A DNA stretch of 64,000 nucleotides from Nitrospirota bacterium (GCA_963818475.1 CAWFSF010000002.1:672001-736000); one strand, 5' to 3'. Shown: positions 54,560 through 64,000, counted from the first letter of the stretch. A program made the numbers and translations. The notes: generated by a model from the sequence alone, not told the origin.

Positions 54560-54838
54560 ATGAACATGAAGAAAGTTCTTGCACTGGTAGTAGTGGCACT
54601 ACTCGCTGCATCTGCAGTTCTGGCAGCCGACATCGTCACGCTCAGTTCGAAGATGGGTGACGTCACCTTTAACCACAAGGTCCACAGCACGGGAACGGAA
54701 TGCACTGTCTGCCATGGAGAGGGCACGCCCGGGAAGCTGACGCTCGAAAAAGATCCAGCACACAAATTATGCATCGCTTGCCATGAAACAAAGAAAGCCG
54801 GGCCTACAAAATGTCAGGACTGCCACAAGAAAAAATGA
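54560..54838 (+). CDS. Periplasmic triheme cytochrome c7 (PpcA-like)
   Basis: Signal peptide; GDVTFNHKVH, CTVCH, AHKLCIACH, GPTKCQDCH. Confidence 0.88.
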   Translation: MNMKKVLALVVVALLAASAVLAADIVTLSSKMGDVTFNHKVHSTGTECTVCHGEGTPGKLTLEKDPAHKLCIACHETKKAGPTKCQDCHKKK

Positions 54839-58288: not shown

Positions 58289-58375
58289 GACATGAAGGCC
58301 GCGCCTTCAGATTCGAATAGCTGGTGTCTTGACAGATGTCGCTTGTGTAGTGTATTGAAGTATAGGAGGTGCGCC

Positions 58376-58478
58376 ATGAGATCAGTCCTGTCAATAAGTT
58401 TGCCCGATAAGGTTGCCCATGAGCTCGACCGGTTCGCAAAGAGCTAGGGGCGGAACAAGAGCGACGTTGTTAAAGAGC
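58376..58478 (+). pseudogene. Truncated CopG/ribbon-helix-helix antitoxin-like gene at the island border
   Basis: MRSVLSISLPDKVAHELDRFAKS*GRNKSDVVKE; AGGAGG RBS; TTGACA at 58329; internal TAG stop. Confidence 0.65.
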
Positions 58479-58712
58479 GGACGACGCAACGGGTGTAAAA
58501 ACGTTATATAGGCGCCCTAAGGGGGGGCGGCCAGGGCGATACATACAATCCGTTTGACACGATAATTAAATAGGCCTAAGATTAAAATACCACTGTGTAT
58601 TTTCAAGCCCCCGTGTTACAGAAACGTGGGCCGCAAAGGCAGAATAATGAGCTTTGCTCGCTTCTTAACTGAAATCCACGTTTTGAGAATAGCAAGAGAA
58701 GGGGTGTAATAC

Positions 58713-59756
58713 TTGGATATTCTGAATAATAATAGTTTGCGGAAGACTCCAGTTTATGATGTCTACTGGCGTTTTGCAGCTGAGCGGCAGAATATATTCT
58801 TTAACCGGCTTCTTCAAGAAAAAGCACCTTGGACTATGGATCCCATAATGGCTAAATACAAGTTTACCAATACGTACAGAGTGTTGGATAGGGTGAGTCA
58901 GTTTCTGATTTCCAATATAATTAATCCCGATATGGAAAGTGATCTGTCGGATGAGGATAAGCTCTTCAGAATACTCTTATATAAAATCTTCAATAAGATT
59001 CAAACATGGCAATTGCTTGAGGACGCACTTGGGGAACTCTCATGGCGTAGGTATTCTTTCCAAGAGTACGACAGGGTCTTGAGTGCAGCTTTTCAAAATG
59101 GCACTATCTATTCTGCTGCATACATTATGGCATCCGGGAAGAGTGTATTCGGTTGCGAACGAAAGCATCAGAATCACCTGAAGTTACTCGAATACATGAT
59201 GAAGAGCAACATAACCATGAAAGTTGTATCGTCGCAGTCTATGGCTCAACTCTATAATGTGCTGATATCATATCCGCTTGTTGGGCCATTCTTAGCCTAC
59301 CAGTATGCAACAGACATAAATTATAGTTGGCTTACGGACTTTTCAGAGAAAGATTTCGTGGTTGCTGGGCCTGGTGCTCGCGATGGAATAGCAAAGTGTT
59401 TTTCTAATAGAGCATCCTATTCAGATGAAGTTATAATTCGCTCTATGATGGAAAATCAGAATGCTGAATTTGAACGTTTAGGGTTGGATTTCAAAAGTCT
59501 GTTCGGAAGGCCACTACAGCTAATCGACTGCCAGAACATATTTTGTGAAGTCGGAAAATATGCTCGCATCTCACATCCCGACATTAAGGACAAAAGTGGA
59601 CGATTGAAAATTAAGCAGCTCTATCGCACTTCTGGAGCCATCCTCCCACCGTCTTTTCCAGAAAAATGGAGGCTATCAACTGCCGTACACACATTTACTA
59701 ATACTCACCTAGTTCAAGCAAGACTTCGGGGGGGATATTCACTAGAGTTAGGGTGA
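58713..59756 (+). CDS. aGPT-PPlase1-like (alpha-glutamyl/putrescinyl thymine) DNA base hypermodification protein
   Basis: YWRFAAERQ..F, PWT.DPI...YKFTN.YR..DRVSQ, IYSAAYIM, GPFLAYQY..D.NYS, VVAGPGA.DGI, LIDCQN.FCE..KYAR. Confidence 0.8.
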   Translation: MDILNNNSLRKTPVYDVYWRFAAERQNIFFNRLLQEKAPWTMDPIMAKYKFTNTYRVLDRVSQFLISNIINPDMESDLSDEDKLFRILLYKIFNKIQTWQLLEDALGELSWRRYSFQEYDRVLSAAFQNGTIYSAAYIMASGKSVFGCERKHQNHLKLLEYMMKSNITMKVVSSQSMAQLYNVLISYPLVGPFLAYQYATDINYSWLTDFSEKDFVVAGPGARDGIAKCFSNRASYSDEVIIRSMMENQNAEFERLGLDFKSLFGRPLQLIDCQNIFCEVGKYARISHPDIKDKSGRLKIKQLYRTSGAILPPSFPEKWRLSTAVHTFTNTHLVQARLRGGYSLELG

Positions 59757-59919
59757 GAAATGCCGACCATGTGATTTAATCAAGGACATGATGGCCATTA
59801 TCGGTAGTGATGCGCGTGAATTACATGGATATTTGGCCTGTTATCTCGTTTATTTCAAGCGACGATTTTAACCTGAAAAGGGGCTACGCAGGCATGGCTC
59901 GAGTATCGCGAGGATAAAA

Positions 59920-60417
59920 ATGAGCACAACTAATACAAAGAACGTTTTCATTAGTCATCACCACGAAGACGATGCACACGTTGACAAGTTGACAAATTTG
60001 CTTAGCAAGAAAGGATTTAACATCAGAAATAGTTCCATCCGAGCAAAACCAGCGAATCAGGAGCGTTTAGAAAAGGGACTTATCAAGGAGGCAGTGCTCA
60101 AACGTTTGCTCCGGATGAAGATATCCTGGGCAGGGTCGGTTATAGTCCTAGTTGGTAAGGAGACACACTCGCGCCCCTGGGTAAACTGGGAAATCGATCA
60201 GGCGCATAAGCAGGGGAAGAACATTGTAGGCATTTATGAGCATGGACTCAAGGACAAGGTTGATCTCCCGCCTTTTTTAGAAAAGTACAGAACGTCGCAA
60301 GTTGTTGGTTGGGATTCGGATGCTATTATCGACGCGATTGAAGGAAAATCAGTTTTTCAGAATCCCGATGGGACACCTTCTCCTCGGAATGACGGACCTC
60401 ACATAACGTGCAAGTAG
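59920..60417 (+). CDS. TIR-like protein (DUF1863/MTH538, Thoeris ThsB-type)
   Basis: NVFISH, VIVLVGKET..RPWVNWEI......K.IVGI with the catalytic Glu retained. Confidence 0.88.
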   Translation: MSTTNTKNVFISHHHEDDAHVDKLTNLLSKKGFNIRNSSIRAKPANQERLEKGLIKEAVLKRLLRMKISWAGSVIVLVGKETHSRPWVNWEIDQAHKQGKNIVGIYEHGLKDKVDLPPFLEKYRTSQVVGWDSDAIIDAIEGKSVFQNPDGTPSPRNDGPHITCK

Positions 60418-61067
60418 AATCCACAAAATATTTGTACATCTATGTTGTAGATCGAGATTTCGGGTTCGCTCCAAACCCGTTCCATGGGTACTGCACTTTG
60501 GCTACATGTAAGCCAGACATCAGGAGAACAGCTCATGTTGGCGACTGGGTTATGGGCGTTGGCGGACGACGTTTGAATGCGACGGGAAGATGCATATACT
60601 TGATGAAAGTGTCCGAGATTCTTACCTTTGATGAATATTGGTCAGATAAAAGGTTTTGGGTCAAAAAGCCCATCCGAAACGGAAGCCTTGTGATGATGGT
60701 CGGTGACAATGTTTACCATCGGAATAATATCGAAGAGGACTGGACACAAGAAGACTCACACCATAGCAACGAGGATGGCTCTATCAACCATGAGAATGTA
60801 AGGATAGACACAAAATCTATTAATGTCCTTATTTCACATCACTTCTACTATTTCGGTAGCGTCGCGCCAGTAGTCGATTTGTCAACTATTGGCTATAAGA
60901 ATGGAATAGGCCATCGGAAAAAGTCACTGGAAGATTCTAATGTAGCTGTTCTTGTGAAGAAGATTGAAGATCAGTTCAGAAGAGATAGGAATACGGTTAT
61001 TGCTGACCCCATCAATTTTGAGCATGCTTCAAAGCGAGTTGATCAGGGTACTGGGAAAATTAGATGA
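60408..61067 (+). CDS. Nmad2 (nucleotide modification associated domain 2) protein
   Basis: YVVDRDFGFAPNPFHGYCTLATCKPDIR...VGDWV.G, GDN.YH, VLIS..FYYFG. Confidence 0.82.
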   Translation: MQVESTKYLYIYVVDRDFGFAPNPFHGYCTLATCKPDIRRTAHVGDWVMGVGGRRLNATGRCIYLMKVSEILTFDEYWSDKRFWVKKPIRNGSLVMMVGDNVYHRNNIEEDWTQEDSHHSNEDGSINHENVRIDTKSINVLISHHFYYFGSVAPVVDLSTIGYKNGIGHRKKSLEDSNVAVLVKKIEDQFRRDRNTVIADPINFEHASKRVDQGTGKIR

Positions 61068-61109
61068 GTATATCGAGAGGAGCATGTATTCTGAAAGGAG
61101 GAATTATCC

Positions 61110-61748
61110 TTGCCGAATCTTATCAAAATAGCTTTTGATTATACAAAGCCGTCGATGACTATCGAATCCGACTGGTTATTGTTCATTGTTTTATTAGTAA
61201 TCATTCTGCTGGTTGTTATATTGCGTAAGAAGGGATTCTTGTCATGGTTTAACCGATATGATATGGAAGTCGAGATATCAGGAGCACCGAAAATAAAGGT
61301 CAAGGTAGAAAGAAATAATGAAAATCTATTCATTGCCAATCGAATATACATAGAACTGACAACTAGGAAGGCAGCAATTCCTTTTGACGAAGATAATGAT
61401 GTAATCGCAGAAGTTTATGACTCATGGTATAAGTTGTTTGGAATCATTCGTGAAGAAATAAAGAGCGTACCTGGTAGATATCTAAAAGACCACGATCCTA
61501 CTTCTGCCCTAATCGGCCTCACTACAAAAATACTGAATGAGGGATTAAGGCCTCATTTGACACTATATCAGGCAAGGTTTAGAAAATGGTACGAAGAAGA
61601 AAAGGAGCGGCCAGAAAATAAACTATTATCACCTCATGAGATTCAGAGGAAATATCCCGATTACAAAAAATTAGTTGATTCGATCAAACAAGTTAATAAA
61701 ACCCTGACTGAGTTTGCAACCGAGTTGAACAAATTGATAAAAGGTTAG
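61110..61748 (+). CDS. Single-TM hypothetical protein, candidate effector
   Basis: N-terminal TM helix; IYIELTTRK, DVIAEVYDSWY..F...RE.IK, LNEGLRPHLT.YQARFRKWY. Confidence 0.75.
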   Translation: MPNLIKIAFDYTKPSMTIESDWLLFIVLLVIILLVVILRKKGFLSWFNRYDMEVEISGAPKIKVKVERNNENLFIANRIYIELTTRKAAIPFDEDNDVIAEVYDSWYKLFGIIREEIKSVPGRYLKDHDPTSALIGLTTKILNEGLRPHLTLYQARFRKWYEEEKERPENKLLSPHEIQRKYPDYKKLVDSIKQVNKTLTEFATELNKLIKG

Positions 61749-61834
61749 CTGACAAGACCGCAGCGCCGTTCTTTTCAAACCCTATAGGTGCGACACTAAA
61801 CTGGTAGATTTCGAATTTATTCTGTGAAGATGAA

Positions 61835-63400
61835 TCAAGTGATAATTTTTGGAAAATAAGTTTGATATTCAGTGATTTTATCTTTGAGCTTGCTTTGATC
61901 TTCCTCAATAAACGGTAAGATCTTCAGAAATTTTTCATAGGGAATTGCAATACCATTGATTGTAACGACGGGATGACTGCCTGGCTTCGCTTCATATTTG
62001 TACGTTGTTAACGTTTCATCCTTAACCGTAAATTCTAGCGTAAATTTTTTTTCTGTTGAATCGACCCCTATCCTCAATATTTTATTGAACATTTCGACTT
62101 TTGCTTTAAAGAACCCCACCAGTGACTTTTGCTTATATTGGGCGTCCCTTTGTTTGAATTCATAGTCAATAGAAACCATTGTTTCAGAAAACTCATTTAG
62201 TGTAACTGATTCTCCTGGATCGTGAAATGCCATAAGATCAAATGTCGGCCGCCCCCAAAACTGAATTTCATCTACAATCAATAAAAGAAAAGAGAACGTA
62301 TTTGGTTTGAAATGATAAATTTCGTGGCAGGTGTGAGATGCTATCGATCTTAATATTTCTCTTCGGATTATGAATTGACGAGCTTCTTCTTCACCTTTTA
62401 ATGTATCGATATTATCAAAATCAAAGTTGGTTTCAAGAAAGTAAACTAAATTTTTTGCAAGAACTAAGCAACTTATTAAACCATGATCAAATCGTTCGAA
62501 TGACCTTGAAAACTTCAGATAATACTTGGCTTGAATGTGTGTACTAAAAGCGTTTTGAGTTTTAGTAAATAAGCGTTTAATAACTCCATTGTCACTTTTC
62601 TTAACACGCGAACTCAAGTATTTTAAAATTGCATCATTAATAAACTGGTTTTGTTGCGGGAATGCAAAGGAAAACTCGTCGAGTTTTGTTTTTGCAAAAA
62701 ACTTCATCATTTTTTTTAAGTTATCATTTATTTTATCTACCATTCCCAATGGATAACCCAAATCGTGTGTTAATGCTATTATGCACCATATAGCATCCTC
62801 CTCACCTTCAAACAAAACACCATTGTTTCGTCGAGATATATTAAGTTTCTTTTCGGCATCTTGACCTTCTGTTATATCAATATTTGTAATGTGGGGCTTT
62901 ATGTCTTTGTGATCGAAAATATCAATTGGAAATTTATCATCGAAAGAATTAAAAAGTAGGAATTGACCTGTAAGCCAGACTCTAATTAAATGGTAGACAT
63001 GATCTCTATAAAACTGTTCCGCGCCATATAATAACCTTTCAAATTCAATAAAAGTCTTAAAATAATCTTTAAGAGAATAAACACCTAAAGAGCCTTCACT
63101 AATTATTCCATAGGCAGATTTAAGGTCTGGTGGTCTTTTATTAGGTGGGAACTCTGTTAAATCATGCCATTTTAGATATTTAATAGCGTCGATCAAAAGA
63201 CGTTCCCAAAGATTTAAGACAATAATTGGGTCTATCTTTGACGTATCAAAAATATCTTTTAGCTGGGTTTTATCATTTGTATCAGGAAATTTACTTATAA
63301 TTTTTACGGTTTCTTCGGATAAAAATTGAATTCTCCCTTGCTCCTTTTTTAAAAAATCAATAAGAAACTTATCGTCAAGTTTTTGATTAAGTGGAGCCAT
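61835..63400 (-). CDS. HD-superfamily metal-dependent phosphohydrolase
   Basis: YRDHVYH..RV, ALTHDLGYP, DHGLIS, IASH, LLLIVDEIQ.WGRP. Confidence 0.72.
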   Translation of the reverse strand: MAPLNQKLDDKFLIDFLKKEQGRIQFLSEETVKIISKFPDTNDKTQLKDIFDTSKIDPIIVLNLWERLLIDAIKYLKWHDLTEFPPNKRPPDLKSAYGIISEGSLGVYSLKDYFKTFIEFERLLYGAEQFYRDHVYHLIRVWLTGQFLLFNSFDDKFPIDIFDHKDIKPHITNIDITEGQDAEKKLNISRRNNGVLFEGEEDAIWCIIALTHDLGYPLGMVDKINDNLKKMMKFFAKTKLDEFSFAFPQQNQFINDAILKYLSSRVKKSDNGVIKRLFTKTQNAFSTHIQAKYYLKFSRSFERFDHGLISCLVLAKNLVYFLETNFDFDNIDTLKGEEEARQFIIRREILRSIASHTCHEIYHFKPNTFSFLLLIVDEIQFWGRPTFDLMAFHDPGESVTLNEFSETMVSIDYEFKQRDAQYKQKSLVGFFKAKVEMFNKILRIGVDSTEKKFTLEFTVKDETLTTYKYEAKPGSHPVVTINGIAIPYEKFLKILPFIEEDQSKLKDKITEYQTYFPKIIT

Positions 63401-63504
63401 AATCGTTATCTCCGAAAAATACGACAACCACAATGTCGTTGGTCAAAGCTCTATCGAAAACCACAAGCAATAATTTAGACCAGCATATTTACTTTTTAAA
63501 AAAG

Positions 63505-64000
63505 CTATGAGGCCGCCTGTTTGCGCGGAGGAGTTACTTGAATTTGATTTGTTTTTTGGAGGGGGCAAAGTGGATCTGGCCCATGGTAAATGCTGCCAAA
63601 TTTATAATAGCGTTGCGCGACACATCGGCCATTGCAGTAGTTTGATTCGGAGCAACTATTACAACCACTCACCATTGTTACATCAAGATCACGTAGTTGT
63701 TCTAATTCTGAACTATGATGCCATATAGTCTCTAGGGATTGCTTATTTATATTAGCCAACCCAAACTTAGGTGCATGCTTAAAAGCAGGACAAGGTACGG
63801 CTGTGCCATCATAGCTGATTAGTAGAGTAGAAATTCCAGCTTTACATTGAACAGGCGTTATCGTTCTATCCACCATCGAACAGAAATTCATCGGACACCC
63901 TGTTCTAATCTGAACAAAGTCACGAAGCTCGTTTTTAATGGCGACAACTTCATTTATGAATTGATTGAATTCTGTTTGATTTAACTCAAGCCGTTGTTTA
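63505..64000 (-). CDS. Radical SAM protein with SPASM domain, 5' part outside the window
   Basis: CKAG....ISYDG...PC, NI...SL..IW, CNSC....YCNGRC, DPLC; frame open to the window edge. Confidence 0.82.
   Translation of the reverse strand, partial: KQRLELNQTEFNQFINEVVAIKNELRDFVQIRTGCPMNFCSMVDRTITPVQCKAGISTLLISYDGTAVPCPAFKHAPKFGLANINKQSLETIWHHSSELEQLRDLDVTMVSGCNSCSESNYCNGRCVAQRYYKFGSIYHGPDPLCPLQKTNQIQVTPPRKQAAS

Follow-up and report, generated by a model that had tools for sequence, protein, structure and literature searches.

The window analysed here, a stretch of 64,000 nucleotides from a Nitrospirota bacterium (GCA_963818475.1 CAWFSF010000002.1:672001-736000), ends inside an AT-rich island in which a reading of the sequence alone had seen an undescribed anti-phage system. 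Do the genes of this island form one system, and on what might it act? ORF reading located all six genes (A to F) where that sequence-only reading had put them. Its calls of an aGPT-PPlase1-like protein, a ThsB-like TIR, Nmad2 and a radical SAM/SPASM enzyme were borne out by Pfam, and that of a membrane protein by a hydrophobic helix. The features are as follows:

58299-58712, no strand: left edge of the island (L001 compared by blastn with the loci of G254, G135 and G230, sequence reading, GC profile)
58713-59756, + strand: gene A, 347 aa, HMUDK_hel protein of the aGPT-Pplase clade-1 type (PF18723)
59920-60417, + strand: gene B, 165 aa, ThsB-type TIR protein (PF08937)
60408-61067, + strand: gene C, 219 aa, Nmad2 (PF18753)
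61110-61748, + strand: gene D, 212 aa, single-pass membrane protein, no family
61835-63433, - strand: gene E, 532 aa, set of HD-like metal-binding motifs, in no curated family
63505 to beyond 64000 (continuing as far as the equivalent of 64590), - strand: gene F, radical SAM/SPASM, with the SPASM match in the window
64600-65115, - strand: MerR-family gene, beyond the window edge, after gene F
about 65400-67018, strand not given: IS110-family element, beyond the window edge

A mobile island between rluD and htpG

The island is a foreign, mobile, AT-rich insertion. It lies as a low-GC segment in the rluD–htpG interval, which spans ~9.07 kb here versus ~1.06 kb in the same-genus genome G254 (blastn), and its GC content of 0.31-0.46 differs from the 0.52-0.65 of the flanks. 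On the left, the match to the congeneric loci stops near 58298, what remains of an antitoxin-like gene of the ribbon-helix-helix type, containing an in-frame TAG, occupies about 58376-58500, and the drop in GC begins at about 58500. As the sequence-only reading had said, the island is cut by the window edge: beyond 64000 we read the rest of gene F, then the MerR-family gene and then an IS110-family transposase, whose element has a second, 99% identical copy in the genome. Nmad2 is sporadic: of 401 genomes in the phylum, 8 (this one included) have it, and of 63 in the same family, none. Within the window, genes A-B-C-D and genes E and F form two convergent operons.

The TIR–Nmad2 pair

Genes B and C overlap by 10 nt. 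The B product matches PF08937 ThsB_TIR (Pfam, 3.5e-23) and, over its full length, the PADLOC ThsB model PDLC00418 (1.3e-58). Its Glu91, in the motif WVNWEI, and its C-terminal Cys (C164) are invariant in an alignment of 27 sequences, and the position of Glu91 is the one that we take to hold the catalytic Glu of other TIRs. The C product matches PF18753 Nmad2 (Pfam, 4.4e-69), a family whose homologues make up 6196 clusters when grouped at 90% identity and 2376 when grouped at 50% (profile E ≤ 1e-3); among the best 120 homologues, those of full length (at least 93% of the query covered) are 61-79% identical. Many of its polar residues are invariant, including His, Arg and Asn. An EVE fold was tried for Nmad2 and failed.

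In 73 of 80 related metagenome loci, the gene directly upstream of Nmad2 encodes a TIR; in the other seven, less than 132 bp are available upstream. These 80 loci are the ones nearest to the query and not a random sample of the family. Among the 58 dereplicated loci with room for it, 46 have a same-strand TIR ORF ending between -150 and +60 nt from the Nmad2 start, mostly with an overlap of a few bases. Nmad2 genes further off (30-45% identity) lack a TIR and are paired with Nmad3. The divergence of TIR co-varies with that of Nmad2 (r 0.86, n 50) and that of HMUDK_hel does not (r 0.29, n 24); both figures are overstated because related sequences are not independent.

Structure modelling of the TIR–Nmad2 complex scored 0.81 (runs of 0.81, 0.78 and 0.83), with the best of three controls at 0.03, contact agreement of at least 53% and partner pLDDT of at least 90; 58 of 80 solved complexes and 2 of 110 mismatched pairs attained the mark used. 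Since Nmad2 has no solved relative by sequence, a remembered solved structure is an unlikely source of this score, and the model supports a predicted binding of TIR and Nmad2 to each other. In these loci the TIR–Nmad2 pair is the invariant core, whose partners A, D, E and F occur often but can be exchanged.

Partner genes and their recurrence

The A product matches HMUDK_hel (Pfam, residues 12-292, E 2.4e-104), the former aGPT-Pplase1 family, and phrog_2396 (PHROGs, 6.5e-55). It has relatives of at most 38% identity in 435 phage records, some of them annotated as aGPT-Pplase clade 1. Its earlier description as a thymine-hypermodification enzyme needs correcting: the protein consists of the helical domain without the P-loop kinase domain (Pfam), whereas long HMUDK_hel forms in related loci carry an extra Thymidylate_kin domain, and tblastn (E ≤ 1e-4) found no ThyA-like, dNMP-kinase, MazG_C, DCD-like or UDG-like relatives, of the kinds present in related loci, in this genome. 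As the genome has no hmU-making enzymes, a substrate or cue of this type would have to come from an invader or from ordinary pools. Pfam showed no clade-2 aGPT-Pplase among the six island proteins (E ≤ 0.1), nor any PLP enzyme.

Gene D is a candidate effector, with one N-terminal hydrophobic helix within residues 14-47 and a helical part of roughly 170 aa that is predicted to be cytoplasmic. Searches of Pfam, PADLOC, NCBIfam and PHROGs returned no family beyond weak matches, and its homologues number 923. D-like genes occur in 15 of 72 Nmad2 loci (4 of the 19 with full flanks), and on an Aureispira plasmid one closes an all-TIR operon that has no Nmad2.

The E product has 492 homologues and no match in Pfam (E ≤ 0.1), PADLOC, NCBIfam or PHROGs, nor a PDB sequence match by protein or profile. 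Across 24 homologues there is no variation at H145, H148, H223-D224, H317, H367 and D388, with H148, H223-D224 and D388 making up the motif set of HD phosphohydrolases. The HD hydrolase of the sequence-only reading thus stands as to its H/HD/D motifs but finds no family model at E ≤ 0.1, which makes the label one of motifs only.

The complete F product (361 aa) carries a CX3CX2C motif and matches Radical_SAM (2.3e-20) and SPASM (3.1e-10). It reaches the cut-off of no NCBIfam model (best score, PqqE, 124.7 bits versus a cut-off of 381), with best similarities to PqqE/NirJ-type SPASM enzymes. Despite its motif and SPASM domain, we therefore rejected it as a curated RiPP maturase; a non-systematic ORF reading showed no obvious precursor peptide ORF among the tightly packed island genes. 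With prokaryotic viperins (pVip) it shares a radical SAM core in a defence context, but its SPASM domain sets it apart, and this assignment was also rejected: the PADLOC pVip models match only the radical SAM core (residues 15-218, 6.9e-16), which by sequence looks like generic radical SAM similarity, and the viperin model is absent from the best 25 of 55 NCBIfam matches.

The proposal that these genes belong together as a unit that recurs, and are not neighbours by accident, was supported, and their co-occurrence is far beyond chance. All six families share one operon in a metagenome contig (L038), A-F-E-B-C plus a distant D-like gene, and five share a B-C-A-F-E operon of both Parabacteroides distasonis NZ_OY725812.1, whose element has an identical IMG/VR copy, and L095; L093 contains a B-C-TIR/SLOG2-F-E operon. 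Of the 19 fully flanked TIR–Nmad2 loci, 14 have HMUDK_hel and 6 have radical SAM, in every case on the same strand, and across 72 loci F is missing from 64 and E is present in 3. Gene fusions link Nmad2 with TIR (P0375), an HMUDK_hel fragment with TIR and Nmad2 (P0417), Nmad2 with MazG (P0448), Nmad2 with Nmad3 (P0496), and radical SAM/SPASM with E (P0161). Two genomes contain partial sets, namely A-E-F-MerR without B, C and D in G321, where A is split into two ORFs, and E-F-MerR at a contig start in G381, where E is split; as each has a broken gene, both may be decaying remnants.

The 72 related loci also contain co-directional pyrimidine-modifying genes (ThyA-like in 22, MazG in 16, DCD-like in 13, dNMP kinase in 4), and co-directional UDG-like and thymidylate-kinase–HMUDK_hel genes occur too. 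In three of the 72, canonical ThsA+ThsB clusters adjoin the TIR–Nmad2 pair; other company includes TIR_2–SLOG2, SLOG3+TIR_2, TIR–WD40 and AAA_15, and in one related locus a patatin, annotated as a CBASS phospholipase, shares the operon. Plasmids and integrases are common around these loci, and the setting is mobile and defence-like. A search of 50,697 phage records gave no match to Nmad2, D or E. The names Nmad2, Nmad3, aGPT-Pplase and SLOG clusters 2 and 3 reportedly go back to Iyer et al. 2013 and Burroughs et al. 2015 (Nucleic Acids Research). The neighbourhood network seen here is of the same kind as that of the nucleotide-centric conflict systems of Nmad and TIR/SLOG proteins.

Known systems and possible functions

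PADLOC 2.0 named the TIR as a lone ThsB and no system beyond it. In agreement with the earlier statement that no ThsA is recognisable, the island has no domain of a ThsA effector (SIR2–SLOG or Macro/TM), and tblastn (E ≤ 1e-4) found neither ThsA nor SLOG in this genome save a weak SIR2-like match, of 23% identity, elsewhere. The set resembles Thoeris in its small ThsB-family TIR with a conserved Glu, its mobile, defence-island setting and the variable effector-like neighbours of related loci (membrane protein, patatin, TIR–SLOG). It differs in having no ThsA or other named effector here, in its obligate, translationally coupled Nmad2, a predicted TIR binder, and in its ties to hmU-pathway-type, radical SAM and HD-like genes. 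A preprint of 2025 describes Thoeris types I-XI and 29 putative types (bioRxiv 10.64898/2025.12.03.692087), and its main text nowhere refers to Nmad, a kinase or radical SAM; we found no named system matching the gene set, for Thoeris by comparison with the main text of that survey, and no experimental work on the TIR–Nmad2 set in the literature searched.

The other close comparison is with the phage clusters for thymidine hypermodification, in whose published descriptions 5-HMUDK kinase, aGPT-Pplases 1 and 2, radical SAM and PLP enzymes appear (PMC5889632, PMC8989533), including kinase–PPlase1 fusions and radical SAM tailoring, with an aGPT-Pplase of clade 2 serving as an amino acid:DNA transferase (PMC8989533). 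Both have a radical SAM enzyme close to a PF18723 domain and, in related loci, ThyA-like, dNMP kinase, DCD-like and MazG genes; the thymidylate-kinase–HMUDK_hel fusion of related loci resembles gp186 of phage SP10 as described in PMC5889632. Unlike the phage clusters, this set is cellular or plasmid-borne, lacks the kinase, the clade-2 transferase and the PLP enzyme here, has a SPASM domain on its radical SAM enzyme and includes three families (Nmad2, D and E) absent from the phage records searched. Of the parts of a phage-type thymidine hypermodification pathway, the ThyA-like dUMP hydroxymethylase that would supply hmU has no relative in this genome (tblastn, E ≤ 1e-4), and the island shows no P-loop 5-hmdU DNA kinase or clade-2 aGPT-Pplase.

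The presence of the same gene set in unrelated bacteria indicates that it is probably one uncharacterised, defence-like system. More specifically, we propose that the island is a single multi-gene, horizontally mobile, Thoeris-related TIR system working on pyrimidine/hmU nucleotides or DNA, a reading that we see as evenly balanced between right and wrong. Its catalytic or sensing heart would be the TIR–Nmad2 heterocomplex, in which the TIR would keep the Glu used by TIR N-glycosidases and Nmad2 would adjoin that face with its invariant His, Arg and Asn, and whose substrate could be NAD+, a pyrimidine deoxynucleotide or both. The HMUDK_hel protein, which has no kinase domain, may give recognition of 5-hydroxymethyluracil-type nucleotides or DNA, F and E may work as a module of two enzymes, for tailoring or hydrolysis, governed by the MerR-type regulator, and D would be the output that harms the infected cell, a place possibly taken elsewhere by a patatin phospholipase or TIR–SLOG proteins. 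Parts of this scheme are optional, because D is found in only 15 and E in 3 of the 72 loci. The full pyrimidine-modifying set of many loci means, moreover, that a biosynthetic or DNA-modifying role fits at least as well as signalling.

That role leads to a rather unlikely reading, cellular hypermodification of DNA or nucleotides, whereby an hmU-derived pyrimidine would be installed in host or mobile-element DNA as a mark of self or a shield against restriction, with TIR and Nmad2 handling the N-glycosidic bond and the base and the radical SAM and HD-like proteins doing the tailoring. The occurrence of the A family in thymidine-hypermodifying phages, the published radical SAM tailoring and kinase–PPlase1 fusions (PMC8989533, PMC5889632), the co-directional pyrimidine genes and the fusions of Nmad2 to MazG and Nmad3 all speak for it; against it are a genome devoid of hmU-making genes, a kinase-less A, an island with neither clade-2 aGPT-Pplase nor PLP enzyme, the absence of Nmad2, D and E from the phage records, and neighbours that are TIR–SLOG, patatin and membrane proteins, not nucleases. 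Thymine replacement in a cellular genome also has no known precedent.

It is also unlikely that two or three unrelated modules merely share the island, a Thoeris-like TIR–Nmad2(–D) pair beside a separate module of HMUDK_hel and MerR–radical SAM–HD-like genes with a function of its own. Such a division would suit the convergent operons of the window, the partial sets of G321 and G381, the many TIR–Nmad2 loci from which F (64 of 72) or E (69 of 72) is missing and an HMUDK_hel divergence that does not track that of Nmad2, but not the single co-directional, overlapping operons of L038, L093, L095 and the P. distasonis element, nor the constant strand of HMUDK_hel and radical SAM in fully flanked loci, and the broken genes of G321 and G381 may mark these sets as remnants. 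Least probable, and very unlikely in our view, is a counter-defence or addiction cargo in which TIR–Nmad2 would degrade or sequester TIR signals or nucleotides and so shield or stabilise its element: plasmids, integrative elements, integrases and IS elements surround the set, and adjacency to other TIR/SLOG systems is strikingly frequent, yet Nmad2 is absent from the phage collection, the company is that of defence islands, effector-type genes (patatin, membrane protein) share the operon, and the general similarity searches brought up no resemblance to known anti-Thoeris proteins.

A bolder form of the Thoeris-related reading, which we consider improbable, makes the TIR–Nmad2 heterodimer a new immune enzyme joining TIR and modified-pyrimidine chemistry. 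In one version it would make a toxic nucleotide or a signal, drawing on NAD+ and on a base or nucleotide of hmU type that is supplied by the ThyA-like enzymes and kinases of many loci or, where these are missing, as here, by hmU-using phages; in the other, it would fire upon recognition of hmU-type DNA through HMUDK_hel. Either version, if true, would be a bacterial immunity built on the chemistry of phage thymine hypermodification.

Nmad2 is a large, strongly conserved, uncharacterised family spread over distant phyla and plasmids, a close subfamily of which now appears as an obligate partner of a Thoeris-type TIR, linked to phage thymine-hypermodification enzymes. If the set is defensive, it would extend TIR immunity past the scheme of a TIR plus an effector and would point to a chemistry of nucleotides or bases so far unseen in the signalling of immunity. 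With an operon in P. distasonis and numerous homologues in bacteria that can be cultivated, the system is directly testable.

Gene content and insertion of the island

All six ORFs that the sequence-only reading had named are present in the last 5.3 kb of the window (G000:C2:672001-736000, G000 being the window's own genome). Positions in L001, the contig region that includes the DNA beyond the window edge, are window coordinates minus 56000.

Genes of the island within the window (window coordinates, strand, assignment)
58713-59756, plus: gene A, PF18723 HMUDK_hel (E 2.4e-104), helical domain only
59920-60417, plus: gene B, ThsB-type TIR; PF08937 (3.5e-23) and PADLOC ThsB model PDLC00418 (1.3e-58, full length)
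60408-61067, plus: gene C, Nmad2; PF18753 (4.4e-69); 10-nt overlap with B
61110-61748, plus: gene D, single N-terminal hydrophobic helix, without family
61835-63433, minus: gene E, without family match

Gene F starts beyond the window edge. Reading past 64000, where the sequence-only reading had found the island cut off, recovered it complete, as a radical SAM/SPASM protein of 361 aa with CX3CX2C; upstream of it, the L001 contig carries a minus-strand MerR-family gene, then an IS110-family element and then htpG. Searches of Pfam, PADLOC, NCBIfam and PHROGs placed gene E in no family, and the PDB contains no relative of it by sequence; likewise, PDB sequence searches with the Nmad2 profile, the E protein and the E profile returned nothing meaningful. 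Promoter and terminator scans gave counts not above those of shuffled sequence, and among the listed sequencing runs none with RNA carried the sequence, which made up no more than small fractions of metagenome DNA runs.

The island is an insertion between an rluD-like gene and htpG. These genes are separated by about 1.06 kb in G254, a genome of the same genus, versus about 9.07 kb here (L001 2299-11370), and GC content is 0.31-0.46 inside the island versus 0.52-0.65 in its surroundings. Nmad2 was present in 8 of the 401 sampled genomes of the phylum, and E in four, counting the window genome in both cases; Nmad2 was absent from the 63 same-family and five same-genus genomes sampled. The island ends showed no tRNA gene, no Rfam match at E<=0.1 and no convincing att-like direct repeats. 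The IS110-family element lies beyond the window, at L001 9400-11018 (window-equivalent 65400-67018), and, besides a 70% relative, has a second, 99% identical copy at G000:C6:868554-870172; three more sites of contig C5 match its first 130-227 bases, perhaps a repeated target sequence.

A truncated ribbon-helix-helix antitoxin-like remnant with an in-frame TAG occupies the left edge of the island (window 58376-58500), and similar DNA (80-84% identity) is found in three same-genus genomes, away from rluD. Further left, window 54560-54838 encodes a secreted protein of 92 aa whose three CxxCH haem-binding motifs identify it as a small multihaem cytochrome c; it hints at a metal-reducing lifestyle of the host.

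The TIR–Nmad2 pair

Nmad2 retrieved 6196 homologous clusters, has many invariant polar residues and, among the full-length proteins (at least 93% query coverage) in the best 120, shows 61-79% identity with proteins from very different taxa. An alignment-based metagenome scan yielded 599 candidates, 553 of them confirmed relatives, and the best 80 were kept. A homologue of B was detected by tblastn directly upstream of Nmad2 in 73 of these 80 loci, and the remaining seven have less than 132 bp of upstream DNA; because the 80 loci are the nearest relatives of the query, the rule is confined to the window's Nmad2 subfamily and does not extend to all Nmad2. A scan of the genome collection with the single Nmad2 protein gave only three loci. 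Dereplication at 95% Nmad2 identity left 72 loci, excluding the window. In an ORF-based count, 46 of the 58 loci with room for it have a same-strand TIR gene whose end falls between -150 and +60 nt relative to the start of Nmad2. Seven of the 12 misses are distant Nmad2 genes (L007-L012, from genomes of the phylum, and L004, from the genome-collection scan), several of them paired with Nmad3 instead of a TIR; in four others tblastn does detect the TIR, the miss being an artefact of ORF calling or spacing, and one (L096) is without TIR. The identities of TIR and Nmad2 to the window proteins co-vary (r 0.86, 50 dereplicated loci), whereas those of A and Nmad2 do not (r 0.29, n 24), although the p-values overstate this because related sequences are not independent.

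Complex prediction with alignments made for this analysis scored 0.81 (runs 0.81, 0.78 and 0.83), whereas the best of three controls scored 0.03, with a contact agreement between runs of at least 53% and partner pLDDT of at least 90; 58 of 80 solved complexes and two of 110 mismatched pairs reached this mark. The model supports binding of TIR and Nmad2 to each other. The predicted interface comprises residues 96-99, 101, 120-127 and 142-144 of the TIR, just past its invariant Glu91, and residues 25-27, 84-96 and 195-198 of Nmad2, including the invariant His26, Arg90, Asn91 and Gly92, and we infer that both proteins might share a joint active site. No solved structure related to Nmad2 was found by sequence, and an EVE/PUA-like fold was rejected (3.6% probability in hhalign against 24 EVE domains of the phylum). 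All TIRs of the pair have an invariant Cys 1-2 residues short of the C-terminus, preceded by a conserved QNPDG motif (alignment A3); in B this is residue 164 (60409-60411), which the complex model does not name at the interface.

Homologous proteins also include fusions of Nmad2 with TIR (P0375), with MazG (P0448) and with Nmad3 (P0496), as well as an HMUDK_hel fragment followed by TIR and Nmad2 (P0417) that may result from read-through. Weak TIR similarity (20% probability) was seen in the N-terminal extension of P0405, and none in P0416. By eye, P0442 (368 aa) continues after its Nmad2 domain into a C-terminal D...EVK motif like those of PD-(D/E)xK nucleases.

Partner genes and reading of the island

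Partners were counted in the 72 dereplicated loci and in the subset of 19 with at least 4 kb on each side.

Partner genes of the TIR–Nmad2 pair (of all 72 loci; of the subset of 19)
HMUDK_hel: 29/72; 14/19 (13 co-directional)
ThyA-like: 22/72; 10/19
TIR_2–SLOG cluster 2: 18/72; 9/19
MazG+MazG_C: 16/72; 2/19
D-like: 15/72; 4/19
dCTP-deaminase-like: 13/72; 6/19
UDG-like: 10/72; 0/19
SLOG cluster 3 (with TIR_2 protein): 8/72; 4/19
radical SAM/SPASM: 8/72; 6/19 (all co-directional)
Nmad3: 5/72; 2/19
dNMP kinase: 4/72; 3/19
ThsA: 3/72; 2/19
E: 3/72; 2/19

To judge by these neighbourhoods, A, D, E and F belong with the TIR–Nmad2 pair as exchangeable partners. Recurrence of the set, which the sequence-only reading had left to be checked, was found in locus L038, where all six families form one operon (A-F-E-B-C-D-like), its D-like protein having only 29% identity over 85 residues (pairwise E 2e-6). 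Likewise, P. distasonis NZ_OY725812.1 contains B-C-A-F-E as a single overlapping operon adjoining an integrase, identical to that of IMG/VR contig L095, and locus L093 reads B-C-TIR/SLOG2-F-E; in P0161, a radical SAM/SPASM enzyme is fused to E. On an Aureispira plasmid, a D-like gene is the last of an all-TIR operon without Nmad2 (Nuc_deoxyri_tr2, TIR, TIR_2–SLOG2, TIR, ThsB_TIR, D), and D thus seems to have a TIR association of its own. Outside the named clusters, the genes directly downstream of Nmad2 are mostly TIR proteins again: a TIR_2–Pterin_4a (pterin carbinolamine dehydratase) protein (L083:1315-2193), a TIR_2–WD40 protein of 1139 aa (L025:8834-12253) and a TIR_2 protein of 1254 aa (L054:8842-12606); an AAA_15 ATPase and another radical SAM enzyme were also found at this position.

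Two other genomes of the phylum may hold decaying copies: in G321, A (broken into two ORFs) accompanies E, F and MerR, with B, C and D missing, and E is split in G381. In locus L150 (G321:C2:871000-889000), from a different family of the phylum, the A-E-F-MerR island is beside Mu-like/rve transposases and has an RluD-like pseudouridine synthase gene at a distance of about 2.5 kb; the RluD-like neighbour in common with the window island could reflect a shared insertion region or coincidence.

One mobile, defence-like system best accounts for the evidence, and we give this reading an even chance. The steps proposed for it are derived from the domain families of the proteins, their gene neighbourhoods and fusions, and the modelled complex: a TIR–Nmad2 heterocomplex would be the centre of the system, A, F and E would form a pyrimidine- or hmU-directed accessory set, and D would be the membrane output. 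The main rival, a cellular pathway for DNA or nucleotide hypermodification, finds favour in the ThyA-like, kinase, MazG and DCD genes of related loci, but these are missing here and the companions are of effector type, and we regard it as rather improbable. With members of every recurrent family as queries, tblastn detected no ThyA-like, dNMP kinase, MazG_C, DCD-like, UDG-like or SLOG gene in G000, nor any ThsA, in agreement with its absence in the sequence-only reading. Since the hmU genes are missing, as is from A the thymidylate-kinase domain present in 556-600-aa forms, the island is unable to make hmU nucleotides or to phosphorylate hmU by the known route. That two modules are merely adjacent is unlikely, in view of the single-operon arrangements and the fusion proteins.

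Relation to known systems and to phages

The sequence-only reading had proposed an undescribed system; PADLOC 2.0 indeed found no full named system, but it did recognise ThsB, alone. The PADLOC viperin models match only the generic radical SAM core of F; no island protein reached the cut-off of an NCBIfam model. Nmad2 and the SLOG clusters were reportedly defined by Iyer in 2013 and Burroughs in 2015, and these papers may contain an earlier account of parts of this neighbourhood. Full-text literature searches gave nothing on Nmad2, on TIR combined with aGPT-Pplase or hmU, or on Pplase with SLOG; those on aGPT-Pplase1 led to phage-genome papers and those on SLOG, TIR, thymidylate synthase and MazG to a jumbo-phage survey. 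As far as these searches reach, the candidate system, one of the TIR-based kind, is experimentally uncharacterised. A 2025 preprint (bioRxiv 10.64898/2025.12.03.692087) numbers the Thoeris types from I to XI and adds 29 putative ones; its main text makes no mention of Nmad, kinase or radical SAM, and its Table S1 or Figure 1C may list the pair.

Among 50,697 phage records, Nmad2, D and E had no match, and none has a PHROG family; relatives of A (at most 38% identity) occur in 435, many of them ViI-like or other thymidine-hypermodifying phages. The viral-contig scan gave three Nmad2 loci and none for E, though L095 carries an E relative. By these distributions, the TIR–Nmad2 system is cellular, not phage. 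Nmad2 was also found on 17 plasmids; for instance, Gloeothece pP742404 has an operon of patatin ('CBASS cGAMP-activated phospholipase'), HMUDK_hel, MazG, TIR and Nmad2, and on a Sulfitobacter plasmid the TIR–Nmad2 pair is flanked by MazG/UDG genes and a SLOG3/TIR_2 pair.
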